Made by a program: the position numbers and the translations under genes. Source: an uncultured Mycoplasmatota bacterium (lineage in GTDB: Bacteria; Bacillota_I; Bacilli_A; RF39; UBA660). From it: a stretch of DNA of 64,000 nucleotides. The stretch spans positions 5,032 to 69,031 of the forward strand of contig UREA01000005.1 in assembly GCA_900546715.1 (NCBI GenBank). The letters run 5' to 3'. Numbering within the stretch: the first letter of the stretch is position 1; the number at the start of each line of letters is the position of its first letter. The notes under the pieces are model-generated. The model was not told the origin of the DNA. It ran no database searches and worked only from the letters and a program-made list of their open reading frames with translations. Shown here in pieces: positions 4,972 to 39,320 of the stretch.

Positions 4972-5006
4972 AAAAATAAGAGGGCATATTTACCCTCTTA
5001 TTTTTA
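4972..5006 (+). terminator. intrinsic terminator
   Basis: Stem taagaggg/ccctctta (4977-5000) followed by ttttt. Confidence 0.6.
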
Positions 5007-5581: not shown

Positions 5582-7231
5582 ATGGAAATACAAACATTAT
5601 TACCAAAAATAACAAACAATTTTTTAGAAGATTATCTTAAATCTTGTGGAGTGGATGATGTAGAAACATATTTAAATGCCGATTTAAATTGTGTAGACAA
5701 TCCATTACAATATATAGATATGAATAAAGCAATAAAAAGATTGCAGAATGCTATTAAAAGAAAAGAAAAAATTGGTATTCTTATTGATTCTGATGCTGAC
5801 GGTATTTTATCATCTGCACTTTTATATTCTTTTTTAAAAGAGTATTTAGATGTAAAAGATATTGTTATTTATAATCATATTGGAAAACAACATGGATTAG
5901 TTCAAAATGAACAAGAGAATATTATTTCACAAATCGTTCAAAGTGATATCAGTCTTTTATTTTGTCCTGATTCTGCATCTAATGACGTTGAACAAGTTAA
6001 TTTACTTAAAGAATATGGTGTTGATGTTATTATATTAGATCACCATGAAATTGAAAAAATAAATTCTAATGCCATAGTAATTAATCATCATAGAAGTAAA
6101 AATTTGAATACTGCTTTGTCTGGATGTGGTGTAACATTTAAATTTGTACAAGCATATTCTCAAAAAATGGACATTGATATTAAAAATCAATATTATGATA
6201 TGGTAGCTATTAGTTTAGTTACTGATATGTGTAATATGACATCTTTGGAAAATCATGCTTTATTTAAATACGGAATTAATAATATAACAAATCCAATGAT
6301 AAAAGCAATGATTGAAGAATATTCTTTTAGAGATATAAGTCCATATAATATAGCTTGGTCTATCTCTCCTAAAATCAACTCTGTATTTAGAGCCGGAACA
6401 TTAGAAGACAAGAATAATTTTTTCTATTGTTTTGTAGAAGAAAGACCAATTTTTCAAGGATTAGATATTTGTGAATTTTGTCACAAAAATCAAAGAAAAA
6501 TTGTGAATACTTTGACAAAAGAATTAAACTCTAATTTAGAAAAATATGATAATGTAATTATTGGTTTTGCTTTTAATGAAGAAACTGTTTATAATGGATT
6601 AATTGCTAATAAAATTGCAGGTACAAATCATAAAACCACTTTAGTTATTAGAGAAATACAAGATAAATATATGGGTTCTTTAAGATCACCAATAGACATT
6701 GCTAATAAAATTAATGATACTGGTTTAGCTTTATGCCAAGGACATTTGCAAGCATGTGGAATTGAATTAGAAAAAAATAAATTGAATGATTTAGTTGAAT
6801 GGTTCAATCATCAAACTTTTTCTATAAAAAAGAATGTGTCTGCTATTATTGAAGCTAAACAAATCACTCAATCTTTATGCCAAATAATAGAGAATAATAA
6901 AGATTTGTGGAATAGTAGCGAAGCAGCTAAAATAACAAAGCCAAAGTTTTATATTACTTTTTCAAATGACAGTTATAATATTTACACCAATAGAACAACA
7001 ACAATTAAATTTAATGTAAATGGCACAAATATTATTAAATTTAGAGCTAAAAAAGAAGATGTAGAACTAATAGAAAAAGAAGATTGTAAAATCGAAGCTA
7101 TTATCACTTTATCTATTAATGAATGGAATGGTAATAAATATCCGCAAGCTATTATTGAAGAATGGGAAATCGTACCCACAACAAAAAATTCAACATTATA
7201 CGATAATAATAATTGGGCGTGTAATTGGTAA
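5582..7231 (+). CDS. RecJ-like DHH-family single-strand DNA exonuclease
   Basis: DHH-family motifs ILIDSDADGILSSA, CPDSASND and ILDHHE. Confidence 0.65.
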   Translation: MEIQTLLPKITNNFLEDYLKSCGVDDVETYLNADLNCVDNPLQYIDMNKAIKRLQNAIKRKEKIGILIDSDADGILSSALLYSFLKEYLDVKDIVIYNHIGKQHGLVQNEQENIISQIVQSDISLLFCPDSASNDVEQVNLLKEYGVDVIILDHHEIEKINSNAIVINHHRSKNLNTALSGCGVTFKFVQAYSQKMDIDIKNQYYDMVAISLVTDMCNMTSLENHALFKYGINNITNPMIKAMIEEYSFRDISPYNIAWSISPKINSVFRAGTLEDKNNFFYCFVEERPIFQGLDICEFCHKNQRKIVNTLTKELNSNLEKYDNVIIGFAFNEETVYNGLIANKIAGTNHKTTLVIREIQDKYMGSLRSPIDIANKINDTGLALCQGHLQACGIELEKNKLNDLVEWFNHQTFSIKKNVSAIIEAKQITQSLCQIIENNKDLWNSSEAAKITKPKFYITFSNDSYNIYTNRTTTIKFNVNGTNIIKFRAKKEDVELIEKEDCKIEAIITLSINEWNGNKYPQAIIEEWEIVPTTKNSTLYDNNNWACNW

Positions 7232-7240
7232 TATATAAAA

Positions 7241-7423
7241 ATGAAATATACCTTATTGATTACAGAAATAAAAAAGAAAGAAAAGATTTTATATTTGAAA
7301 TCTTATGGTTATTATAAAGATTTAGTCTTTGTTGTAGAAAGACAATGGGAGAATGATAAATTAAATGATAAAGAAAGAAGTATAATGGAACATATGGGAG
7401 TTAAAACTTATGAGCTACTTTAG
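7241..7423 (+). CDS. hypothetical small protein
   Basis: ORF track only. Overlaps the dnaE start. Confidence 0.3.
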   Translation: MKYTLLITEIKKKEKILYLKSYGYYKDLVFVVERQWENDKLNDKERSIMEHMGVKTYELL

Positions 7424-8798
7424 TATTCACAATCATTCGGATATTGGCTCTAATGCAGGGCTTGGTTTTCCAGATACAATTTGTCGTGTACCCGATTTAA
7501 TTCAGAGAGCTTATGATTTAGGATTGCCTGGAATAGCTTTAACAGATCATGAATCATTAAGTGGACATATTCAAGCACTTAATTATTATAATTCTATGGG
7601 AAAAGATCGTTCTTTTACATTAGGATTAGGCAATGAAATTTATCTTGTTCCTGAAGAATGGGATGAGATAAATAAAGAACATCATAATACATATCCGTAC
7701 TGTCATTTTATTTTATTAGCTTTAGATAATGATGGACATAAACAACTTCGAGAACTTTCTACAAGAGCTTGGAAAAGAAGTTGGAAACAAAGAAGAATAT
7801 ATCGTTGTCCTACATATTATTCAGATTTAGAAGAAATTATTAAACCCAATCAAGGACATGTTATTGCTTCGACAGCTTGCTTGGGCGGAATAATTAGCAG
7901 ATTATTATTGGACAATAAATGGGAAAAAGCATTTGGAGAAAATGGAGAATTAAACAAATTTATAAATATTTTTGGGAGAGATAATATTTATCTTGAAATT
8001 CAACCTCCTAAAGATGCAAATTGCGATCAAAGTAAAGTCAATAGATTAATGTGGAAAGGTCATGAATTTACAGGAATAAAAATTATTCCGAGTTCCGATT
8101 CACATTATCTTAAAAAAGAAGATGCTTTTATTCATAAAATTTATTTAAATTCTCAAGAAGGAGATAGAGAAGTTGATGAATTTTATGCAACAACTTATCT
8201 TATGTCTCCTGATGATCTTCGAGAACATTTGTGTATAGATTTTACAGATGAACAAATAGAACAAATGTTTGAATGGTCTTTAGAAATTTGTAATAGAATA
8301 AAAGGATATAATTTTAATCATGATCCAATTATTCCTCAAATTCCAAAAGAAAAAATCCCAGATTCATTTACTATTCAGCATTGGTTCAAAGAATATTATA
8401 AAAATTATCCTGATTTTGCTTATTATGCTCTTAATAAAAACAATAACAAATGGGAAGAATATTTTTTTTATCAAGTGGAACAAGGATTAAAATCTAAAAT
8501 AGTAGATAAAGGAAAAGATTTACAATTATATATTGCTCGACTTAATGAAGAATTTGAACAATTTAGATTGATTAGTGAACAACTGAATACTTCTATTCCT
8601 TCTTATTTTTCTTCTATGTCAAAAATTATTGATCTTATATGGGAATCAAATAGTTTGGCTATGCCCGCTCGTGGTAGTAGTGCTGCGTCATTAACTAATT
8701 ATCTTTTAGAAGTTACTCAAATTGACCCTGTTCCATTAGGAAACTACTTTCCTTTCTGGAGGTTTTTAAGTGTCGAACGTGGAACAGAGCTTCCAGAT
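7410..8798 (+). CDS. dnaE: DNA polymerase III alpha (DnaE-type), exon 1: PHP domain and start of palm
   Basis: PHP motif SIHNHSDIGS ... ALTDHESLSG. The exon ends ..RFLSVERGTELPD, in the middle of the palm motif PDxDxDF. The unspliced frame hits a stop immediately after. Confidence 0.85.
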
Positions 8799-9068
8799 TA
8801 ACAACATAGTCTGGCTATATGGTGACATATAGAAAACAAGATGGTGAACCCGTACTTGCGGGGTGTGTCTAAAAAGATGCTAACAGTGAAAATCTTGGCC
8901 TACTGAATCGGGTTATGACAACACTGTGCCAAGGCCAAAAGGCAAGGTGCAACGACTAAGTGGCATTATGGTGAAATTCCTATTGTCCAGCGCCATCCTC
9001 TCTATTCTTATAGAGATGAAGATATAGTCTGATCTCATAGAAAATCATAACTATGAGCTAACACAATG
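8799..9068 (+). mobile_element. group I intron, ORF-less (dnaE intron 1)
   Basis: Follows exon U8798 and ends at G9068. Guide gtctgg (8809-8814) pairs with exon ccagat (8793-8798), with a terminal G.U. P7 strands are caacgacta (8950-8958) and aagatatagtc (9019-9029). Removal gives ..ELPD|IDNDSE.., restoring PDIDxD. Confidence 0.85.
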
Positions 9069-10197
9069 ATTGATAATGATTCAGAAGCCTCTAAAAAGAA
9101 AACAATTATAGCAAAAATTAAAGAATATTTTGGAGAAGATAAAGTATTAAATATTATAACTTTTTCAAAAATTTCTTCTAAAACTGCTATACAAAAAGCC
9201 TGCAAAGGATTAGATATTAATAATGATATCGCAGGTTACTTAAAATCTTTGATTCCCGTAGATCGTGGTAAAGTTGCTAAATTAAAAGATTGTTTATTTG
9301 GTAATAAAGAAAAAGGAATCAAACCAGTATATGAATTAGTCTCTGAGATGAAAAAATATCCTAAGTTGCAAGAAACTTGCTTAGGAATTGAAGGACTTGT
9401 AACTAATAGAGGGATTCATGCTGCGGGTATAATTATATGTAACGAACCTTATACCAATTTTCTATCCGCTATGAGATCACCAGATGGAACTTTAATTACT
9501 GGATATGATTTAATTGATGCAGAACAAGTAGGTTGCGTTAAATTTGATATGCTAACTACTACATGCACTGATAAAATTCATAAAACTTTAGATTATTTGG
9601 TTAAATACAATAAAATAAAACCGGGGAAAAATTTGAAAGAAACTTATTATAATTGGATACATCCTGACGTATTAAATTATGATAATCCTGAAATGTGGAA
9701 AATTATTCCTACAATTTATTCAGTATTTCAATTTGACACTCCTATTTCAGTTAAAGCTCTGGAAGCTACAAAACCTAAATCAGTAATGGATTTATCAGCG
9801 GCCAATAGTTTATTAAGATTACAACCTGAAAATAGTTCTATTACACCTATTGATTCTTATATTAAATATAAAAATAATCATCAAGAATGGATAGAAGATA
9901 CTAAAAATTTTGGATTGAATGATAAAGAGCGTGAAATTCTTTGGAAATATTTAGCTGATGCTTATGGATTGGCAGATAGTCAAGAAAAAATTATGCGTCT
10001 AAGTATGGACTCAGAAGTATCTGGATATAGCTTAAAAGAAGCAAATAAATTAAGAAAATCTATCGCTAAAAAAGATGAAAAACTCCAAGCTGAAGCTAAA
10101 CAACAATTTTTTGAATATGGACGAAAAATTGGAACAAGAGAAGTATTTTTAGATTATATATGGAATGTAGTATTTGCAGCAAGTATGGGATATTCGT
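9069..10197 (+). CDS. dnaE: DNA polymerase III alpha, exon 2
   Basis: Continues IDNDSE... Contains GIHAAGIIIC and VKFDMLTT, typical of DnaE palm/fingers. Ends ..ASMGYS plus one nt (phase 1). Confidence 0.85.
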
Positions 10198-11225
10198 AAA
10201 AGATTGTTTAACCTAAACCTTGTGGCATGGTTATTCAATTAAGCGCCTCATAGTAGTAATATTATGAGTGGAGTTTGTGAACTGTTTGGTCAACAGGTGT
10301 GTGAATTATATTCATGCTAACAGAAAAAGCCTAAACTGAAAACAGCAAGGTGATTCTGTGCTAAGTTATAAGAAGTTTTAATATGCAATTATATAACGGC
10401 GATTGTTTAGAAGTAATGAAATCAATTCCAAATAAATCTATTGATTTAATTCTATGTGATCTACCTTATGGTATAACTAAATGTAAATGGGATACTCCTA
10501 TTGATTTATTTGCTATGTGGAATCAATATAATAGAATAATCAAAGATAATGCCCCAATTCTTTTATTTGCTCAAACTCCTTTTGATAAAGTTCTTGGATC
10601 ATCTAATTTATCTATGCTTAAATATGAATGGATTTGGGAAAAAACACAGGCAACAGGTCATCTTAATGCAAAGAAAATGCCGATGAAAGCACATGAAAAT
10701 ATTCTTGTGTTTTATAAAAAATTGCCAATTTATAATCCACAAAAAACAACCGGCCATAAACCCATTCATTCATATACTAAATATATTAAAACTCAAAATA
10801 ATACAGAACTATATGGATATATGAAACAAGAAATATCAGGCGGAGGAGAAACAGACAGATACCCAAGAAGTATTATCACTTTTGCTTCTGACAAACAAAC
10901 TTGTCATTTACATCCTACTCAAAAACCCGTCACTTTGCTTGAGTATTTTATTAAAACTTATACGAACGAAGAAATGTTAGTCCTTGATAATTGCATGGGT
11001 TCTGGCTCCACAGGCATAGCCTGTATCAACACAAATAGGAATTTTATTGGAATTGAACTTGATAAACAATATTTTGATATCGCTAAAGAAAGATTAACTT
11101 CTTATAAAAAGTGCAACGACTAAGTGAACGGAAATTGACTACCGTTTGAGCGCAAACTACCCTAATCTTATAGATGGGTAAAGATATAGTCTGCTCTACA
11201 TAGAAATATGTAGCTAACATTAAGG
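10198..11225 (+). mobile_element. group I intron carrying a DNA methyltransferase ORF (dnaE intron 2)
   Basis: Shares the atgctaacag block, caacgacta (11114-11122), aagatatagtc (11181-11191) and the ..agctaaca..g 3' end with intron 1. Splicing U10197 to after G11225 gives GYS|FSQLHSYSYSIVALQE, matching the DnaE motif GYGFNKSHaaaYa. No convincing P1 guide was found by eye. Confidence 0.75.
10383..11123 (+). CDS. beta-class N6-adenine/N4-cytosine DNA methyltransferase (intron-encoded)
   Basis: Motif IV DLPY (LILCDLPYG) precedes the AdoMet motif DNCMGSGSTG, which is the beta-class order. HPTQKPVTLLEYFI is also present. The stop codon lies inside the intron P7 5' strand (gcaacgacTAAgtg). Confidence 0.8.
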   Translation: MQLYNGDCLEVMKSIPNKSIDLILCDLPYGITKCKWDTPIDLFAMWNQYNRIIKDNAPILLFAQTPFDKVLGSSNLSMLKYEWIWEKTQATGHLNAKKMPMKAHENILVFYKKLPIYNPQKTTGHKPIHSYTKYIKTQNNTELYGYMKQEISGGGETDRYPRSIITFASDKQTCHLHPTQKPVTLLEYFIKTYTNEEMLVLDNCMGSGSTGIACINTNRNFIGIELDKQYFDIAKERLTSYKKCND

Positions 11226-12640
11226 TCTCTCAACTACATTCATATAGCTATTCTATTGTAGCTCTTCAAGAACTTAATCTAAATTATTTTTATCCTAAGG
11301 TTTATTGGAATTGTGGTTGTCTTTCTGTTGAATCTATGGGACTTAAAGACAATGAAGATGGTACACAAAAAATTGGTAATACTAATTATGCAGAAATTTC
11401 AAAAGCCATATATAAGATGAAACAATCTGGTATAAATGTATTACCTCCTTCTATTAATAATTCTGATATAGATTATGTTCCCTCGGAAGAAAAAGATATA
11501 ATATATTTTGGCCTTATAGGAATTTCTGGAATTAATATCAACATTTGCCAACAAATTATTGAAAATAGACCTTATAATTCATTCAAAAACTTTTATGAAA
11601 AAAATTGTTATGATGGTAGTTTAATTACACATAGCAAATTTATTCAATTAATTAAAGCAGGTTGTTTTGATGAATTTAATTCAGACCGAACAATAATAAT
11701 GAAACAATATGTTATATTATCTACTCCTATTAAAGATACATTAACAATGTCTAATCTTCCAGAAATATTAAGAATTAAATGCAATATACCGAAAAATATT
11801 ATCGAGCCTTATTATTTCAAAAAATATGTAATTAATAAGCAATTTTTATATGGACAGCATCCTAATTTTAAGACAAAGAAATTATATTGGTTAGATAATA
11901 AAGCTCTAAAATACTTTGAAAAACATTGTAAATTAAAGATGAAAGAAAATATAGATTGGTTACAAAAAGATGATTTAACTTTAATAGTTGACAAATCTTT
12001 AGAGAAAGCAATTTCTTCTCAAATACAGTCTTTGAAAGATTATATTTCCAATCCTTCTTTTATACAAGAATATAAAAATAAAACATATATATATTATTAT
12101 TCAAATATGTTAGATAATAAAGACCCTAATCATTGGTCTATTGAATCATGTGGATTTTATTCTAATCAACACGAATTATTAAACATCAATAGACAAAAAT
12201 ATAATATTTCTTTATTTGATGATATTCCTTTGTCTCCCGTATTTTATACCGAAAAATACGGAAAAAAAGAATGGAAGAAATATGAATTATATCAAATTGC
12301 TGGAACAGTTATTGATAAAATTGACAATCATCATTTAGTTACTATTCTTGATATTAATAACAAAGTAATCCAATGCAAGTTTGATAAAAATGATTATGCT
12401 TATTATAAAGCTCAAATTAGTGACACAAATGGTGATAAAGGAAAAAATATAATAGAAATTTCTTGGTTTAGAAGAGGAACAACTTTAATTTTAACTGGAT
12501 ACCGTATAGGATTAAATGATTTTCGCATAAAAACTTACAAAAACTCAATTTATAACAAAAAAGTAAAAAAAATTTGTTCTATCAATGATAAAACCGGAGA
12601 AATTATTACTCAAAGTGATAAACAAATAATTGAAAAATAA
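11226..12640 (+). CDS. dnaE: DNA polymerase III alpha, exon 3: C-terminal part with OB-fold region
   Basis: The frame is open from 11226, upstream of the first ATG at 11336. FSQLHSYSYSIVALQELNLNYFYPKVYW continues the DnaE motif. Confidence 0.8.
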
Positions 12641-26125: not shown

Positions 26126-27583
26126 TTATTTCCATTCTCCATTTGATCCTATTTTTACGATACATTGTTTCCAAGCACCATTAACGCCATAATAAACAGT
26201 ACCTTTAACCCATTTATTATTAACTCCTACATATACATTGTTATCATCTGATGAAGTATCTTGCCAAATAGCATATACAGTTCTTACATTATTATTCCAT
26301 TGTTCCACCCATGTTTTATAAGAACCAGAAGAAGTAGTAGACCATCCTAACAATATATGATCTGCATAAGACAATGAAGGTTCAGTAGGAATATTATTAG
26401 TTTTAGTTCCGGTGCCATAATAATAATTTGTACTACTACTACTACTAACAGTAGTTCCACCATTTTGAGGATAATAAACCATTTGCTCTTGTTTTTTATA
26501 AACCCCATAAAGAGTGGTGTAGCCAGCGCCGTAGGCTTGTTTATAATCTGAATAACTTACAGAACTACTTGACGATGATATACTCCATCCCTGAAAAGAA
26601 TAGGAAGAATCAGATAAACATGAAGTATTAACAGTTCCATAATCAGTAGACATTACATGCCCACCATCATGATCTCCTCTTCCATAATAATACGCATCAG
26701 TCGTCTTTGTAGAAACAGAAACAGATTGTCTTGAACTACTTCCTCTATAATAATATTTTGTGTCGGTAGTAGTCCCCCCACCTTTAAAATAAACCCCATA
26801 AAGAGTGGTGTAGCCAGCATTATAAGCCTGTTCATAGTCTGTATAATAAAAATCGGTGGTTCCGTCCTCCGTTGCCCACCCCTGAAATTCATAAGTGCTA
26901 TCTGCCGCACAAGAAGTAGTCACTGATCCATAAGTGGTCGAAACATCTCCTTCTTCATATACACCTTTACCATAAATATAAGAAGTTTCTTTTTTTTCGT
27001 ATGCTGTCACAGATCGTCGAGTACTATTGCCTCTATAATAATATCTTGTACTTGTAGAAGTTTCACCTTCTTGACTATATATGCAATATAAGGTCTGTCT
27101 ATTAGCTGTAGCCCAACTATTCAAAAATTCCATGTGAGCATCATAAATACCATTCCTGCTGGAATCAATCGAGGCGCCAATTAAATTCCATCCTACTAAT
27201 GTGCATTCACTACGCAAGTTTGGATTGTCAAGACTGTTAAGTAACTCAGAACTACTAAATCCTTTATAATATACTGTTGCAGCATATTTAGGTAAATCTA
27301 AATAATATACATAACTGATGCTACCAACAGTAATAGCTGTATCATAATATGTATCACATAATACAATTTGCAATTCTAAGGAGCTTTCTTCTGGATAGGC
27401 ATTTAAAGTAACATATCCAGAACTTCCAGACAATCTTCCTTTATACCAATAACGATAATTAGTAAAAGAACCACCTATATAAATATAATAATTACTTGTT
27501 CCTCTAACTTGTATTCTCGCCCCATCATTAAACCCATTAGGCCCAACCCATGATGCAGAAGTAGGTTTTGCAAAATTAGCCAT
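26126..27583 (-). CDS. repeat-containing adhesin-like protein (Listeria-Bacteroides-type repeats)
   Basis: Two repeats of about 95 aa: YYYRG.S.R.SV...YG.G....TSC..DS.Y.FQGW...Y..AY.AGYTTLYGVY. A third, degenerate copy ends ..LLGWSTTSSGS...VYAIW. Confidence 0.45.
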   Translation of the reverse strand: MANFAKPTSASWVGPNGFNDGARIQVRGTSNYYIYIGGSFTNYRYWYKGRLSGSSGYVTLNAYPEESSLELQIVLCDTYYDTAITVGSISYVYYLDLPKYAATVYYKGFSSSELLNSLDNPNLRSECTLVGWNLIGASIDSSRNGIYDAHMEFLNSWATANRQTLYCIYSQEGETSTSTRYYYRGNSTRRSVTAYEKKETSYIYGKGVYEEGDVSTTYGSVTTSCAADSTYEFQGWATEDGTTDFYYTDYEQAYNAGYTTLYGVYFKGGGTTTDTKYYYRGSSSRQSVSVSTKTTDAYYYGRGDHDGGHVMSTDYGTVNTSCLSDSSYSFQGWSISSSSSSVSYSDYKQAYGAGYTTLYGVYKKQEQMVYYPQNGGTTVSSSSSTNYYYGTGTKTNNIPTEPSLSYADHILLGWSTTSSGSYKTWVEQWNNNVRTVYAIWQDTSSDDNNVYVGVNNKWVKGTVYYGVNGAWKQCIVKIGSNGEWK

Positions 27584-32693: not shown

Positions 32694-32730
32694 TTAAAAA
32701 TATAAGAGGGGAAGTTATCCCCTCTTATAT
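32694..32730 (-). terminator. hairpin overlapping the tape measure stop codon
   Basis: Stem ataagagggg/cccctcttat, followed on the - strand by atattttt. Confidence 0.45.
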
Positions 32731-35700
32731 GCTGTCTGATAAGCAAAATTAACTAAAGATTGAACAAATTCTTGAACGTCATTTTTATTCTTAATACTTG
32801 GGAAAGATAAATCTACATTACTCATATTAAGCTGGAATCCTTTGTCTTCTGTCGGTAAATTGCTTAAAAGATCAATAGGATTCATTTTGCCCCAATCCCA
32901 TAAATTCTTTGTGACATCAGAAGGGAGAATACTATCCCCAGTATTTAATAACCTAAGTTCAGGCCCTTCTTCTCCCACAAGAGACATACCGCCTTTAGAA
33001 GACAAAGTGCCCTTAGCATTCTTTTCAACTAATTTGCTCCAAAGACCATTAATTGGATTATATTTAGCACCAGGAGTATATGGATGTACAATCTCATAAT
33101 CTCCTCCGGCTGTATGAATAATATCACCAATAGTAGCACCTTCTGGAGCATTACCGCCTGGAGCTACATCTAAATGTTTCCCGCCACCAACATATTCACT
33201 TTGATAGCTACCATCTTCATTAACTCCTGTAATTCTATAATTACCACCAGCAGTTGAAACTATTGTGCCAACAGGTAATCCCTTAGTTTGTGTTTTACCA
33301 TCCTTAATATCAACATCTATAACACCGACACCAGGAACCCAAGCAGTACCCGGAGTCCCTCTTCCACCTTCGGCATTTGGACCAGATACTACTGTATTTT
33401 TATCTTGCCCTGTTTGCCAATTTTCGTTTTCGAGTTGTTGCATGAGTTGAATATATCGGTCAACATAATCCTGTAAATTACCAAGACGTTTTTCCCAATT
33501 ATCTCCCTCAAGTTTAATACCTAATATTTGTTCGGCTAATAAACGATCTTGAAGATCATTGACTTCGTCAATAGCACTACCATATTCATCAACATAATCC
33601 TGCCAATATTTAATTTTTTCTTCAAGAATTTTTAACTCTTCGTCTCTATTTTTCTCTAACTGCTCTATTTGCTCTTCGAGAGCCTTTTCAGCCTTATATC
33701 TATCCAGCTCTTTTTGCGCTTCAGAAATAGCGTCTGTATCTTGTATATATTGAAACCGTCCATCTTTATATACATACAATTTTTGAGTACGAGCTTTTGC
33801 TAAGGCATCCAACTTTTCTTGAAGCTCTATCTGCTCATTAGTTTCTTCATTTTGCTTCTCTAATTTTTCTATCTCAGCATCATATTTATCATTAATAGCA
33901 TCTTTTTGCTCTTCGAGTTTGTCTATTTCTCTTTGAGCTAATTCAGCTACATAATTTAAGGCTTTTTCAATATTATCAGCTTCAGTTTCCCACGCATCAC
34001 GTTCAGCCTCTATATAATTATCGAGCGCATCTTCTCGTTGTTCAAGATAATACTCATAATCAATTAAGCCTTGTTCATACCAATCGTCCATCCATTCCAT
34101 GACGCGACGCCAAGCATCAATTTCATTATCAGCGCCCCAATCATTGAAATAATTACGATCTTCTATATAATCTTCTGAGCGTTTTAATCGTTTATCAAAG
34201 GCATCCTGTTGGAGTTTAAGAATATCTTCTTCATACCCCCACCACTCTTTCTGAAGTTCCATTATATACTCAGACTCATCGTCAAGTCCTTGTTTTCTAT
34301 AACTTTCAGCTTCATCATGAGCTTTCTTTTGCATTTGACGTAAATGAGCTATCTGTTCTTGTTCAGTAGCACCATTCTTTTCCATTAAATACAATTTATG
34401 ATCTAATATATCCATCTGTTCTTTATACAGATCATTTTGTTCTTTAATGGCATCATTTTCATCCTTTATTGCTTTGGTAGAAGATTTAGCAGTAGATGTC
34501 TTTTTCTTGGAAGCAGAAGATGAAGAGGAAGAAGAAGGTTTTTTAGAAGATGGCGGTTTCGAGGTAGAAGGTTTTGACCCAGAAGGTTTTTTATCTCCCC
34601 ATAAATTTCCAACAGTGTCTGAAACATCTATTATAGATTGTCTTCCTGTACCTTGAGCATATCCACCTTTTACATCTTCTTTTTCTACTTTATGCCCAAC
34701 ATTCCTACTAATGTCTTTATTAGAAGTAACAACCGCTCCTTTGGGTAAAGTAACTATTTCAGGACCTTGTTCTCCTACCCAATATTGCCCGGCTCTATTT
34801 ACTTTACCTCCCTGAGCTTTGCCGCCGCCAAGATCAGGAATAATATAACCTAAAACTTTCTGAGCACCGGAACCAATTTGTGAAATAATTCCCTTCAAAC
34901 TATTCCAAATTGAACTGACTCTATTATAACAATTTTGAGCAGCAGAAATTAAACCGCTGAATGCGCCCTGAGATGCACTTGTATCTACTGGATTATTTGT
35001 AACCTCTTGTTGAGCATCTTTTACTCCTTCAACAGGTCCAGCAGCATCTTCAGCCGCAGACTTTTCTTCATTTAATTCGGTCTGACTTGCATCTGTATTA
35101 GCCGGATTTTCAGTCACTCTCTTTTGAGCAGTGGCAACTAATTCTAATGCTCTTGCATCGGCATCTGCTACTCCCTTACTCTCTAAGAAAGAAGCAATCA
35201 TGTCAACATTCGCATTAGCCAGTCCTTCAACGCCTAATTGAGCCTCTAACATCGTATAAGCTAAATTAGTGACTTGTTCTTGAAATTCCTCAAAAGTGGT
35301 AGAACCAGATACAAGCCCCTCAAGAATTTCATCCCAACCTTCCAATCCACTAAATGCTTCATTTAACTGCATAATAGACTCAAAACTTAACTGTCCATTT
35401 TCAGCAAATTCAGCTACAGATTGAGAAAGTATGTCAAAATATCCGCCTACATCTCCTAAACCACTTAATTGCCCTGATAAAGAATTTATGCTTTCTGCCG
35501 CCGCCTCAATAGTTGTTCCAAAATGATCCTGAAAGAAATCAAGAACACTAATGGTTTCTCCATTTAGTACCATTACAGCATTCTTTAATCGTTTTGGAAG
35601 CTCTCCTGTCTTTGCATATAACTGAGTCATTGTATCCCAATATTCAGTTAATACGCCCTCTTGCTCTAAAAGGTCATCATTAGCTTCAGCTATTTGCTTA

Positions 35701-36884
35701 AAATCGCCAGTACTTAAAGCCTCATCGACTGCTTTTTGATAATTATTCCACTGAGTAATTGCTTTTTCGATATATAGCTCAGTGTCCATCATTTCTCCAG
35801 TAATAGTAGCACGAGTTTTTTGTCCTGATGCTATTCTATCACCGATCGGAGAAGCAGTTAAAATAGCTTCTAATTTTTCAGTCTCAAGAGACGCTATATT
35901 GTTCTTCATCTGTTTTAATTGCTCATTATAAGCTGCTAAAACAGATGCACTTGCACCGCTACCCTCTAATTCTGCTATTTTCTGTTCAAGTTCGGAAACA
36001 GCTTCTGTTGTTTCATCAATCTCATCTTGAATAACATGCTCGGCAGTAGCTTCTTCCATAGATTTCTTTGCAGCAAATCCAATGGAAATAAGCGCACTAA
36101 CTAACATCGCAATAGGTCCAGCAAAAGTCCCTATTTTGCTTAATGCCCCAGATAGTTTACCAACAGAACCAGACGCTTTACCAGCGGCAGAAGCAATACC
36201 ACTTATAGCATCACCAGTAGCAGAAGCAGCGGAAGCAGCTTTGCCCACATCCCCCATAGTGGAAAACAATTTACCCATATTAACAAATTTAGCTCCCACT
36301 TTCCCGGCAATAGCTAAGAAACCTGTGAGAACTCCGCTTAATAAAGTAAATTGTGTTACTGCTACGCCAACATCTGTTGATAATAACTCTAACCCAGTGT
36401 TAGCTAAATCTAATATTCCTTTAACCAAATCACTATCTATAACAGAAGTAGATAGTTCTTGGAAAGTATTTTTAAGGTTGCCAACTTTTGCCTCTAAGCT
36501 ATCCATATAAGCGGCATTTTCTCTTGTGGCAGAACCTGCAGAATCCATTGCAGTTGCCGTTGCACTTATAGCAGATTCAAAGTTGGTCATAACAGAAGTT
36601 AATACGTTAAATTGGTTTTTACCAGCAAGAGCCTCACCAATAGCAGCTTGTTCTACACTGGCTAATTCATCCCAAGCAACCGATTGACCTTCTACACCTT
36701 CATAAAGTTCTTTTAAAACTTCATATGTTGATTTCATTTCTCCCTGAGAATCTCTCAGAGAAATATTAACTTTGCCATTAGCAGCTACATATTTATCTGT
36801 TTCAGCCGCTAATGCTGCTATGTTCAACCCTATTGTTCGTAGACCATTGCCCACCTTACTTGGCTGGCCTACAAGGATTTCAGT
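32715..36884 (-). CDS. tail tape measure protein, exon 5
   Basis: The frame is open upstream of the track start back to 36884. It begins TEILVGQPSKVGNGLRTIGLNI, the conserved TMP core motif. Long coiled coils, hydrophobic segments and two VGE.GPE motifs follow. Confidence 0.85.
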   Translation of the reverse strand, partial: TEILVGQPSKVGNGLRTIGLNIAALAAETDKYVAANGKVNISLRDSQGEMKSTYEVLKELYEGVEGQSVAWDELASVEQAAIGEALAGKNQFNVLTSVMTNFESAISATATAMDSAGSATRENAAYMDSLEAKVGNLKNTFQELSTSVIDSDLVKGILDLANTGLELLSTDVGVAVTQFTLLSGVLTGFLAIAGKVGAKFVNMGKLFSTMGDVGKAASAASATGDAISGIASAAGKASGSVGKLSGALSKIGTFAGPIAMLVSALISIGFAAKKSMEEATAEHVIQDEIDETTEAVSELEQKIAELEGSGASASVLAAYNEQLKQMKNNIASLETEKLEAILTASPIGDRIASGQKTRATITGEMMDTELYIEKAITQWNNYQKAVDEALSTGDFKQIAEANDDLLEQEGVLTEYWDTMTQLYAKTGELPKRLKNAVMVLNGETISVLDFFQDHFGTTIEAAAESINSLSGQLSGLGDVGGYFDILSQSVAEFAENGQLSFESIMQLNEAFSGLEGWDEILEGLVSGSTTFEEFQEQVTNLAYTMLEAQLGVEGLANANVDMIASFLESKGVADADARALELVATAQKRVTENPANTDASQTELNEEKSAAEDAAGPVEGVKDAQQEVTNNPVDTSASQGAFSGLISAAQNCYNRVSSIWNSLKGIISQIGSGAQKVLGYIIPDLGGGKAQGGKVNRAGQYWVGEQGPEIVTLPKGAVVTSNKDISRNVGHKVEKEDVKGGYAQGTGRQSIIDVSDTVGNLWGDKKPSGSKPSTSKPPSSKKPSSSSSSSASKKKTSTAKSSTKAIKDENDAIKEQNDLYKEQMDILDHKLYLMEKNGATEQEQIAHLRQMQKKAHDEAESYRKQGLDDESEYIMELQKEWWGYEEDILKLQQDAFDKRLKRSEDYIEDRNYFNDWGADNEIDAWRRVMEWMDDWYEQGLIDYEYYLEQREDALDNYIEAERDAWETEADNIEKALNYVAELAQREIDKLEEQKDAINDKYDAEIEKLEKQNEETNEQIELQEKLDALAKARTQKLYVYKDGRFQYIQDTDAISEAQKELDRYKAEKALEEQIEQLEKNRDEELKILEEKIKYWQDYVDEYGSAIDEVNDLQDRLLAEQILGIKLEGDNWEKRLGNLQDYVDRYIQLMQQLENENWQTGQDKNTVVSGPNAEGGRGTPGTAWVPGVGVIDVDIKDGKTQTKGLPVGTIVSTAGGNYRITGVNEDGSYQSEYVGGGKHLDVAPGGNAPEGATIGDIIHTAGGDYEIVHPYTPGAKYNPINGLWSKLVEKNAKGTLSSKGGMSLVGEEGPELRLLNTGDSILPSDVTKNLWDWGKMNPIDLLSNLPTEDKGFQLNMSNVDLSFPSIKNKNDVQEFVQSLVNFAYQTAYKRG

Positions 36885-37389: not shown

Positions 37390-37724
37390 AATAAATTTTT
37401 ATTATTTGTTTAATATTCGACTATATCTTTATATTTAACTAAATATATCAGGGCGCTTGGGCTTTCGCCTACTCTACTCACTTCGTCTATTAAAATAGCT
37501 TATTCTCTATTAAGAGTTACATTTATCATTTGCTTTCGATAGTCTGTGAAGATTCATCTTTGTTTCAAAAGATGCTTTCCTGCGGATTGTTTATTATTAT
37601 ATCCTTTTTCCTTATTACTATTCCTTTGACATTACTCTCAGCCCTTATAATATCACTATTATAAGTTAGTAGAAAAAGACATTAAAATATTCCCGCAATT
37701 CACCCTAAAACGGCCTTTATTAAA
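37390..37724 (-). mobile_element. group I intron, ORF-less (TMP intron 3)
   Basis: Follows exon U37725 and ends at G37390. Guide gccgt (37714-37710) pairs with exon gcggt. P7 3' strand is aagatatagtc (+ strand gactatatctt, 37428-37438). Confidence 0.8.
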
Positions 37725-37924
37725 ACCGCATCAATAATATGCTCGGAATTTTCAGCCTCTATATTAAAGGCTTTCATTTGAGAGATCAAAAATCGTGCTG
37801 CGTCAGCACTTGATACTTGAGTATCAGCTATATTTGTATATTTAACCGCTATTTCTGCTAATAAAGCAGAATCACTATCATCAAAAGAGTTTTTTCTGAA
37901 TTCAGTGGCAGCTTGTAACATTTC
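37725..37924 (-). CDS. tail tape measure protein, exon 3
   Basis: Encodes EMLQAATEFRKNSFDDSDSALLAEIAVKYTNIADTQVSSADAARFLISQMKAFNIEAENSEHIIDA(V). The exon may begin 3 nt earlier, at 37927. Confidence 0.75.
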
Positions 37925-38648: not shown

Positions 38649-39046
38649 CATTTATATTAGGAAGTAATTGATAAAATATCAATTATATGGACGCTACTCC
38701 ATTCCCCTGTTTATATAACAGCTTTAATTTTCATTAAAGATTAGACTATATCTTCTTCTATAAATAATAGAAGTGTGCCATTTCAAAATACCAAACACTT
38801 GTATTTTTACTCCTTTTCAGGATAGTCGTTGAACGTTCCTTTATTCAAGGCTTCGCTGCTGATTATCTATTAATATTTACTTAGGATTTAACCATATAAA
38901 CATATTTTGCTTTTTTTCTACTTTCGTAACATTCACACTTAGGCATGTTTCATCCTTATGTTGTAGTAGCAAAATCTTTAAGACGTCCCAGCAATTAGAC
39001 ACATATTTTTACACTCATCTCACAATAAGCGAGAGCAAAAAAGTTC
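38649..39046 (-). mobile_element. group I intron, ORF-less (TMP intron 1)
   Basis: Follows exon U39047 and ends at G38649. Guide gctct (39036-39032) pairs with exon agagt. P7 strands are caacgacta (+ strand tagtcgttg, 38823-38831) and aagatatagtc (+ strand 38744-38754). The 5' half is near-identical to the tail-tube intron. Confidence 0.85.
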
Positions 39047-39320
39047 ACTCTGTCAATGCGCTATCTAATTCAAAGACTTGATCCACCATAGACCTAATAG
39101 CACTTGCCGAAGCATCCATAATCATATTTGCTTCTTGGAAAGTTAAGCCTATGTCCTTAGCAATGTCATTCAAATTTTTAGCACTATTTGTCGCCTTATC
39201 TAATCCCGAAGAATCAGCACTTATTTTTATTTTAGAATCTATTCCTTTTAACTGACTCTTTATACTTGATAAATCAAGTTCTACATCAGTTATAATAGAA
39301 TAATTAGAGCCTCCTGCCAT
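39047..39320 (-). CDS. tail tape measure protein, exon 1
   Basis: ATG at 39320 with RBS aaggatggg. Ends ..MVDQVFELDSALTE plus one nt. Confidence 0.8.

Follow-up and report, generated by a model that had tools for sequence, protein, structure and literature searches.

The dnaE gene in the 64-kb stretch of contig UREA01000005.1 analysed here (the window) has been annotated automatically as three separate genes, with a gene for a DNA methyltransferase (MTase) between two of them, and we were interested how a DNA-modification enzyme comes to lie inside a polymerase gene and whether both proteins could be made from this locus. The window is part of an AT-rich phage genome of ~95-100 kb, the nearest cultured relatives of which are the Enterocloster bolteae phages CB457P1, CB457P2 and CB473P1-3 (~67% nucleotide identity in the polymerase region). 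An initial annotation had read positions 10198-11225 as a group I intron of dnaE (intron 2) with the MTase as its only open reading frame (ORF). From the evidence set out below, we consider it likely that this interval is a splicing-competent dnaE intron whose P6 loop houses the orphan beta-class MTase of the phage. Paired regions, joining regions and loops of the introns are abbreviated P, J and L with their number; related loci carry three-digit L numbers and MTase homologues four-digit P numbers.

Splice boundaries and exon restoration

The alpha subunit of DNA polymerase III (PolIII-alpha, DnaE) is coded at 7410-12640 in three pieces. The first was assigned by Pfam to the PHP domain and the beginning of the alpha domain, the second to the remainder of the alpha domain and the finger domain, and the third to HHH_6. 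The bounds of intron 2 could be set exactly. Exon 2 ends with ...ATG GGA TAT TCG T at 10197, an in-frame stop T/AA (10197-10199) spans the 5' splice site, and ...CATTAAG closes the intron at G11225; both the U at the 5' exon end (U10197) and the final intron G (omega-G11225) are thus present. Joining U10197 to U11226 leads to GYSFSQLHSYS, read as WNVVFAASMGYSFSQLHSYSYS / MGYSFSQLHSYSYS, and the restored junction ...WNVVFAASMGYS-F-SQLHSYSYS... is the same as in L016 and L023, in which dnaE is uninterrupted; a conserved PolIII-alpha motif is thereby restored exactly. The spliced DnaE would have 1310 amino acids (aa), compared to 1300-1305 aa in intron-less relatives. Similarly, removal of intron 1 restores ELPD/IDND, the uninterrupted sequence of the same two loci.

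The ribozyme core

At the gathering threshold of Rfam (50 bits) intron 2 was not reported. At an E-value threshold, two matches to RF00028 were obtained, one of 40.4 bits (E=3.5e-8; 10991-11213) and one of 16.7 bits (E=0.46; 10320-10400), which flank the ORF; the match comes in two pieces because the 741-nucleotide (nt) ORF in L6 splits it. The Rfam search of the related loci L001, L002 and L014 gave no match, though dnaE introns are present there, and the general Rfam model is insensitive to the dnaE intron family once its loops hold insertions. By BLAST, the 3' core of intron 2 matched P7/J8-7 cores in 223 phage records.

The core elements were placed by comparison with intron 1 and with the related dnaE introns of L001, L002, L014 and L022 (Table 1). 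Every helix of the conserved group I core, P3-P8 with the P3/P7 pseudoknot, could be placed, and GCAACGACUA and AAGAUAUAGUC fit the consensus. Within the stretch from P6a to the 5' strand of P7 (11102-11122), GUGCAACGACUA was aligned to the Rfam consensus with high posterior probability, and J8/7 with the 3' strand of P7 reads AAAGAUAUAGUC. For the covariation analysis, helix strands were hand-picked and verified as occurring in order in their sources. In this alignment, all 40 helix pairs of P3, two family-specific hairpins (hpA and hpB), P4, P6, P7, P8 and P9 form in each of the eight related introns, with compensatory, two-sided changes at 30 of the 40. None of 500 shuffles reached this level of covariation, and sliding the partners by 1-3 columns led to pairing of 32-44%. 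P3 may serve as an example, with the versions GAUGGUG/CGCCAUC, GUUUGUG/CGCAAAC, AUCGGUG/CGCCGAU and GUCUGUG/CGCAGAU; the double changes in P3, P4, P6 and P7 lie next to invariant sequence, which fixes their alignment. A MAFFT alignment of the whole ORF-trimmed introns was dropped, as the 5' ends aligned too poorly, and the P3 placement of Rfam (GAUGCU beside J3/4) was rejected since only the upstream strand (GAUGGUG/CGCCAUC type) covaries among the introns.

In all introns of the dnaE family, the interval from the 5' strand of P3 to J3/4 contains a pair of hairpins (window 8848-8880 and 10273-10321; L014, L001, L022). The second of these varies from 12 nt to more than 700 nt including an ORF, and the region is treated as an insertion by Rfam.

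Therefore, from the restored motif, the canonical J6/7-P7 and J8/7-P7 and the covarying helices, the identity of 10198-11225 as a group I intron is supported, and it is most likely a splicing-competent intron of an IA-like subgroup, as predicted from these features.

The P1 region

The initial annotation had found no convincing P1 guide. The doubt is justified, the best candidate pairing with just 3 nt of the exon, and has been resolved in part: a P1 homologous to that of L022 can be drawn, albeit a weak one, and its extension stems covary. The candidate was selected by this homology, the P1 of L022 showing an exon CUUU/GAAG pairing and a 9-bp extension stem. In L018, L019 and L020, which represent a second haplotype of the same species, the P1 stems are changed at G10206-C10236 (to A-U) and C10219-G10224 (to U-A), and P2 shows a compensatory change from C-G to U-A. 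A possible alternative guide of 5 bp, GUGGA 10268-72, directly precedes P3; L014 and CB457P1, whose intron 2 has no P2, show the guide at this location.

With the core and P1 at hand, it can be asked whether 10198-11225 is spliced at all, or whether the split dnaE polypeptides assemble, the MTase gene is intergenic and what resembles a ribozyme is a decayed relic of one. An Rfam score below the gathering threshold, a very short exon-guide pairing and an internal ATG in exon 3 at 11336 would suit an unspliced locus. Against this, the core helices are intact and covary, including compensatory changes within the species, J6/7, P7 and J8/7 fit the consensus, the boundaries lie inside a codon of an invariant motif that is restored exactly, and an exon 3 product starting at ATG 11336 would lose 37 conserved residues. 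An unspliced relic is therefore highly improbable, and a splicing-competent intron is assumed in what follows.

The methyltransferase gene

The Pfam check proposed in the initial annotation was run and confirmed that the ORF codes for a complete beta-class MTase: it matches PF01555 over the full length (positions 1-221 of 221; 97.8 bits with a cut-off of 26.7; E=1.1e-27), and PHROG 67 with E=3.6e-79. DLPY was found at residues 26-29, HPTQKP at 177-182 and DNCMGSGSTG at 202-211 (motif I, MGSGSTG, at 205-211), and the order of motif IV before motif I is that of the beta class. DLPY aligns to DPPY of M1.HpyAVI, with L in place of the first P. As M1.HpyAVI (5hek), MboIIA, CcrM and RsrI are the nearest relatives in the PDB, the target is probably the N6 position of adenine, and the intron-borne enzyme is probably an N6-adenine MTase, as predicted from its sequence.

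The window MTase keeps every residue that is invariant in an alignment of 11 homologues, which are 71-84% identical to it; D26, L27 and P28 are invariant in this 11-member alignment, and Y29 is F in one member. The ratio of non-synonymous (dN) to synonymous (dS) divergence was 0.11-0.13 between the window MTase and orthologues in other contexts, and 0.10-0.18, from few substitutions, among intron-borne alleles. The gene thus reads as intact and under purifying selection. Two alleles with in-frame deletions were seen. L019 (6220-6893) is shorter by 22 aa, with residues 141-162 missing, and P0002 by 15 aa, with ~15 residues missing around 101-115. Both are probably inactive because invariant residues have been removed, and the MTase is therefore dispensable in some genomes.

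These two variants, together with DLPY instead of DPPY in motif IV, might be taken to mean that the MTase is a decaying passenger, inactive or near loss. As dN/dS is ~0.1 also within the intron-borne lineage, as all family-invariant residues are kept, with D26-L27-P28 invariant across the 11 members, and as the dominant allele is identical across very many samples, decay is scarcely credible, and the MTase is regarded here as a maintained gene.

The MTase is the only ORF of intron 2 with a family match, and a homing endonuclease (LAGLIDADG, GIY-YIG, HNH, His-Cys box, PD-(D/E)xK or EDxHD) is not encoded there. The other ORFs of at least 40 aa in this intron, all of which overlap the MTase in different frames, gave no hit in Pfam, and there is no space for a hidden endonuclease because only 185 nt lie 5' and ~100 nt 3' of the MTase ORF. 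A cryptic endonuclease, for which a check had been suggested in the initial annotation, was accordingly not found in the intron. Further MTase homologues of the tested kinds, or an HNH homologue, were not detected in the 64-kb window either.

Position of the reading frame and predicted expression

The MTase ORF lies in L6 and is closed by P6 and P6a. The peripheral loop upstream of P7 in which it had been placed is therefore L6, the loop that also holds an HNH gene in intron 1 of CB457P2. A Shine-Dalgarno-like AAGAAG (10370-75) is located 7 nt before the AUG and shares two nt with P6a; it reads AAGAGG in the other five aligned variants. At the other end, the stop TAA (11121-11123) falls within the 5' strand of P7, GACUA 11118-11122, just as noticed before, and the last seven codons (SYKKCND) with the stop form the 3' strands of P6a and P6, J6/7 and the 5' strand of P7 (11102-11122). 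Free-standing homologues have different ends after a conserved AKER(I/L), and among the C-terminal tails of 33 close homologues the KKCND ending was found only in P0001 and P0002.

Because these strands encode the end of the ORF, a ribosome at this position would cover P6, J6/7 and P7, and a competition between translation and ribozyme folding on intron 2 is a reasonable inference from the overlap. A promoter and terminator scan of 9900-11400 showed no promoter-like site upstream of the ORF on the (+) strand, with counts below the shuffled expectation; the simplest template for translation of the MTase would therefore be the dnaE transcript or the excised intron.

Relatives of the intron and of the methyltransferase

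Orthologues of the MTase with 76-86% identity are usually ordinary free-standing genes. The closest one, P0003 (L013; 86-87% identity), is free-standing and follows DnaB, those in L104 and L106 have other gene neighbourhoods, and those in L016, L017 and L105 immediately precede an uninterrupted dnaE of 1300 aa. A more distant homologue in L113 (57% identity, 242 aa, canonical DPPY) is also free-standing; here (6851-8205) the stop codon of the MTase overlaps the start codon of an HNH-like ORF of 209 aa, and the tandem is directly upstream of an uninterrupted 1305-aa dnaE.

L014/L015 represent a close relative of the window phage, with exons 91-96% identical at the protein level. In this relative the MTase is located in dnaE intron 1, looped from hpB by a stem of AGGUUAAU (4993-5000) and AUUAACCU (5721-28), and its last ~15 codons run through J3/4, P4 and P5. 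The same intron holds an HNH_3 gene in L8, and the tandem of L113 may resemble the arrangement before this capture. Intron 1 of the window is the ORF-less form of the MTase-bearing L014 intron.

The joint occurrence of MTase and HNH_3 in L014 intron 1, and the adjacent MTase and HNH genes with overlapping start and stop in L113, would also fit a restriction-modification-like pair, in which methylation shields intron-bearing or self DNA from an HNH nickase, be it intron-encoded or not. Such a pair is very improbable, as intron 2 has no endonuclease and an HNH homologue was not found in the 64 kb; moreover, homing endonucleases normally need no immunity, as their target site is destroyed by the insertion, and most orthologous MTases are free-standing with no HNH gene beside them. 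We therefore return to the MTase as a cargo without a partner enzyme.

The closest homologue of intron 2 is the intron of L022, which carries no MTase; its ORFs, found in L1, L6 and the region of P9, are small and could not be assigned. In L014, CB457P1 and CB457P2, intron 2 is inserted 6 nt upstream of the window site, with an HNH gene or no cargo, and in intron 1 of CB457P2 an I-HmuI-like HNH gene occupies L6. When 80 IMG/VR loci holding MTase homologues were scanned for core motifs, with sensitivity to the dnaE intron family only, the motifs were found in order around the MTase in just three near-identical relatives.

Introns are found at three points within 7 nt of the DnaE GYSF motif, namely at 10197/10198 in the window, 7534/7535 in L014 and ~442/443 in L022, that is after base 1 of the Tyr codon (L014), base 1 of the Phe codon (window) and base 2 of the Phe codon (L022). 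That window intron 2 shares its site with its counterparts in L014 and the Enterocloster phages was considered and rejected, the window site being 6 nt downstream and that of L022 1 nt further. In CB457P1 (L001, ~6270-6285) the expected 3' splice site of intron 2 shows an A where CB457P2 has the terminal G (...CAATTCA/ATTCC and ...CATCACG/ATTCC, respectively), and this intron may be defective or use another 3' site. P7 of CB457P1 intron 1 is altered on both strands (GGUCA/UGACC).

Proposed capture and population state

Between the window and L014 the MTase shows a dS of 1.31 and a dN of 0.13, compared to a dS of 0.23-0.55 and a dN of 0.02-0.05 for the flanking dnaE exons. In a neighbour-joining tree, calculated without support values, the window copy was placed with P0003, a free-standing gene, and that of L014 fell outside the clade of P0003, P0005, P0006 and the window copy, so that the intron-borne copies are not sisters. 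The dS contrast and the non-sister position point to two separate captures and not to a hop between introns; alternatively, the interior of the intron may have been replaced laterally. The favoured origin of the MTase is a free-standing phage gene captured from the neighbourhood, as suggested by the orthologues upstream of intron-less dnaE and the second capture in the sister phage. It has been published that a free-standing endonuclease gene beside its target can enter an intron by illegitimate recombination (PMC3984707), and the adjacency of MTase and dnaE, sometimes with an HNH gene, would fit this route. By analogy, an endonuclease moving into the intron may have carried the neighbouring MTase along, at least in L014 intron 1. 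The two ideas of the initial annotation, the intron as a vehicle and the MTase as a replacement of an endonuclease, are both possible.

The exact MTase protein is indexed in 1167 metagenome-collection blocks, mostly from human-gut assemblies with contigs of 50-100 kb. A same-species allele without intron 2 was not found in the viral and metagenome collections; uninterrupted GYSFSQLHS alleles occur in 12 loci, all of them distant (71-75% nucleotide identity). Intron 2 with its MTase thus appears to be fixed in a common gut phage. A different picture was obtained for an extra intron of dnaE exon 2 (window ~10070; SIAK/KDEKLQ), which is absent in the window and present in many genomes of the same species. 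It is ~262 nt long and ORF-less in L004-L008 and L010-L012 (L004 5424-5685), and ~1240 nt long with a 349-aa LAGLIDADG ORF in L020 (4604-5841), a polymorphism that is the usual picture of a homing element. Sequence identity is not broken at the borders of intron 2 and begins to fall ~750 nt inside exon 3, so that no sign of co-conversion was seen.

The apparent fixation (1167 blocks, no intron-less allele of the species), next to another dnaE intron that is polymorphic for its presence and for its LAGLIDADG gene, raises the question whether the MTase also benefits the intron. Precise loss of the intron would delete the MTase, so an anti-restriction gene could shield the intron from the cycle of invasion, endonuclease decay and loss; with an endonuclease supplied in trans, the MTase could even pass from one co-infecting phage to another. 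The two separate captures, each in a different intron, and the free-standing MTase-HNH tandem adjoining dnaE in L113, are in line with this. On the other hand, fixation could arise simply because the species is young and of clonal descent, an endonuclease targeting the intron 2 site was not identified, and there is no sign of a transfer of intron and MTase between lineages; sequence identity is unbroken at the intron borders. Such a benefit, which would add to the reading of a housed phage MTase and would not replace it, is possible and rather doubtful. In general terms, peripheral loops of phage group I introns might be recurrent landing pads for anti-defence genes, with endonuclease-less introns that escape loss and become vehicles when an endonuclease acts in trans. 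We regard this generalisation as unlikely; if true, the two MTase captures in sister gut phages would be its first examples.

Proposed course of events

For the likely case of a splicing-competent intron housing the phage MTase, the following course can be proposed. The dnaE gene would be transcribed as a single pre-mRNA, and ribosomes on exon 2 would stop at the splice-site UAA, leaving the intron free to fold. The ribozyme would then fold with P6 and P6a holding the 741-nt ORF outside the core, and splicing would lead to the mRNA of the 1310-aa polymerase. The MTase would be translated from its own weak Shine-Dalgarno sequence, partly within P6a. Because this sequence is part of P6a and the last 24 nt of the ORF are those of P6a, P6, J6/7 and P7, translation and core folding should exclude each other on a given RNA molecule, and translation of the MTase would therefore probably take place mainly on excised intron RNA or on non-splicing transcripts. 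Made together with the polymerase, the MTase would methylate the replicating phage DNA and protect it from host restriction. It would once have been a free-standing neighbour of dnaE, sometimes beside a free-standing HNH gene, and have been captured in intron loops at least twice. Since intron 2 has no endonuclease of its own, it would be immobile or rely on an endonuclease in trans.

Several points speak against this explanation. The best Rfam score of intron 2, 40.4, is under the 50-bit gathering threshold, and a covariation alignment built by hand from chosen helices tilts toward the proposed structure and biases the paired fraction upward. The 3-bp exon-guide pairing of the candidate P1 is weak, and GUGGA 10268-72 is a possible alternative guide. 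Splicing is predicted from sequence, and so is the activity of an MTase whose motif IV reads DLPY and not DPPY, though DLPY is typical of its family, and of which two alleles, L019 and P0002, carry in-frame deletions. The tree that separates the intron-borne copies is the neighbour-joining tree without support values, and the ~30 kb of the phage genome beyond the window could hold other MTases or endonucleases.

Feature coordinates and other observations

Table 1. Features of the dnaE locus and of intron 2, in window coordinates (MFE, minimum free energy)
Feature	Position	Strand	Sequence or content	Basis
dnaE exon 1	7410..8798	+	PHP, start of DNA_pol3_alpha; end ...ELPD	Pfam
dnaE intron 1	8799..9068	+	P1 and P2 in MFE fold, z=-4.3	RF00028, 49.5 bits, E=6.6e-11
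Intron 1 ligated junction, predicted			CTTCCAGAT / ATTGATAATGA	
dnaE exon 2	9069..10197	+	DNA_pol3_alpha, finger domain; last nt U10197 = 5' splice-site U	Pfam
dnaE intron 2	10198..11225	+	group I intron, 1028 nt, ends omega-G11225	Rfam partial matches, covariation, junction check
Intron 2 ligated junction, predicted			...GGATATTCGT / TCTCTCAACT..., also given as GGGATATTCGT / TCTCTCAACTAC	
dnaE exon 3	11226..12640	+	HHH_6, C-terminal region	Pfam, junction check
Candidate P1	10195..10245	+	exon CGU 10195-97 / guide GCG 10243-45, U10197-G10243 wobble	read from sequence
P1 extension	10202-06 / 10236-40	+	GAUUG / CAAUU and inner stems, past internal loop	in MFE fold
P2 hairpin	10248-53 / 10263-68	+	CUCAUA / UAUGAG	MFE fold
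P3	10273-79 / 11151-57	+	GUUUGUG / CGCAAAC	7/7 pairs in 8/8 introns; double changes at 4
hpA, family-specific hairpin	10282-86 / 10292-96	+	CUGUU / AACAG	covariation
hpB, family-specific hairpin	10302-06 / 10310-14	+	UGAAU / AUUCA	covariation
J3/4	10315-21	+	UGCUAAC	single-stranded
P4	10320-25 / 10354-59	+	ACAGAA / UUCUGU	covaries; Rfam partial match, model positions 60-138
P5	10329-32 / 10348-51	+	GCCU / AGGU	Rfam partial match
P6	10360-62 / 11110-12	+	GCU / AGU	covaries
P6a	10366-71 / 11102-07	+	UUAUAA / UUAUAA; closes ORF loop	read from sequence
MTase ORF	10383..11123	+	246 aa, beta-class N6_N4	PF01555, PHROG 67
J6/7	11113-17	+	GCAAC	read from sequence
P7	11118-22 / 11187-91	+	GACUA / UAGUC	covaries
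P7.1-like hairpin	11127-31 / 11142-46	+	AACGG / CCGUU	
P8	11158-62 / 11176-80	+	UACCC / GGGUA	covariation
P9	11196-202 / 11207-13	+	CUACAUA / UAUGUAG	covariation; Rfam match to 11213

A third group I intron was detected at 38722-39036(-) with 65.4 bits, the sole one in the window above the Rfam gathering score. It interrupts a likely tape-measure gene, of which pieces were found at 39045-39320 (N-terminal), 37700-37921 and 32715-36854, and it seems likely that this tape-measure-like gene is interrupted more than once. Between dnaE and a DHH (RecJ-like) gene, one strain (L007, 817-2607) carries an inserted N6_N4 MTase of 596 aa. This MTase and the window ORF 26126-27583(-) have the same first 15 residues (window 27539-27583), which suggests a shared start module.

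Comparison with known systems

The T4 td intron is a mobile group I intron of subgroup IA2 with I-TevI looped out of its P6 region. As in td, the window intron interrupts a phage gene of DNA metabolism, its ORF is looped from the P6 region, and the ribosome-binding region of the ORF lies within RNA structure. The td intron, however, owes its mobility to its cargo, a GIY-YIG homing endonuclease, whereas the window cargo is an MTase only, with no nuclease domain. For introns of the td type, a conflict of translation with splicing is expected, as cited in a review (Gibb & Edgell 2010, cited in PMC3984707). The Enterocloster phages (OP172753-OP172757) also have dnaE in three pieces with introns of the same family, intron 1 at the identical PD/ID site, and the L6 ORF slot in use in CB457P2 intron 1. 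They differ in cargo, which is an I-HmuI-like HNH gene or none, and in their intron 2, which is inserted at GGC U/AU in the Tyr codon, 6 nt upstream, and not after the first base of the Phe codon as in the window.

Among orphan phage beta-class N6-adenine MTases (M1.HpyAVI/MboIIA/CcrM-like; PHROG 67), which belong to the same family and probably have the same anti-restriction role, the window copy differs by its position inside a ribozyme, with the C-terminal seven residues and the stop made from core strands. A cargo other than a homing endonuclease has been described for the Clostridioides difficile IStron, an IA2 group I intron (PMC3984707). There, IS605-family transposases at the 3' end serve mobility; here, a DNA-modification enzyme with no known mobility role lies in L6. 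An IS200/IS605 transposase ORF (TnpA/TnpB) was not found in intron 2, in which only 12 nt remain 3' of P9. A review of bacterial group I introns names homing endonucleases and, in IStrons, transposases as cargo (PMC3984707). The initial annotation had known of no group I intron with a DNA MTase as cargo, and none was found in full-text literature searches either, the MTases in papers on algal organelles being free-standing.

Of the host genes located within group I introns, rps3 of the fungal mitochondrial rnl introns is known best; there, intron mL2449 encodes Rps3, a host-useful gene that may stabilise its intron. It differs from the window MTase in being part of an organellar rRNA gene, ancient and vertically inherited, not located in a phage and not an anti-defence gene.

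Both the ribozyme and the enzyme are ordinary when taken separately; their combination, its apparent fixation in a common gut phage and its recurrence are not. Described protein cargo of bacterial and phage introns serves the mobility of the intron, and here the sole cargo appears to be a gene useful to the phage, with a probable second, independent case in a sister lineage. Therefore, the locus offers a system for testing how self-splicing introns persist after the loss of their endonuclease, whether beneficial genes stabilise introns or are spread by them, and how translation of an ORF that shares the ribozyme core fits with splicing of an essential polymerase mRNA.

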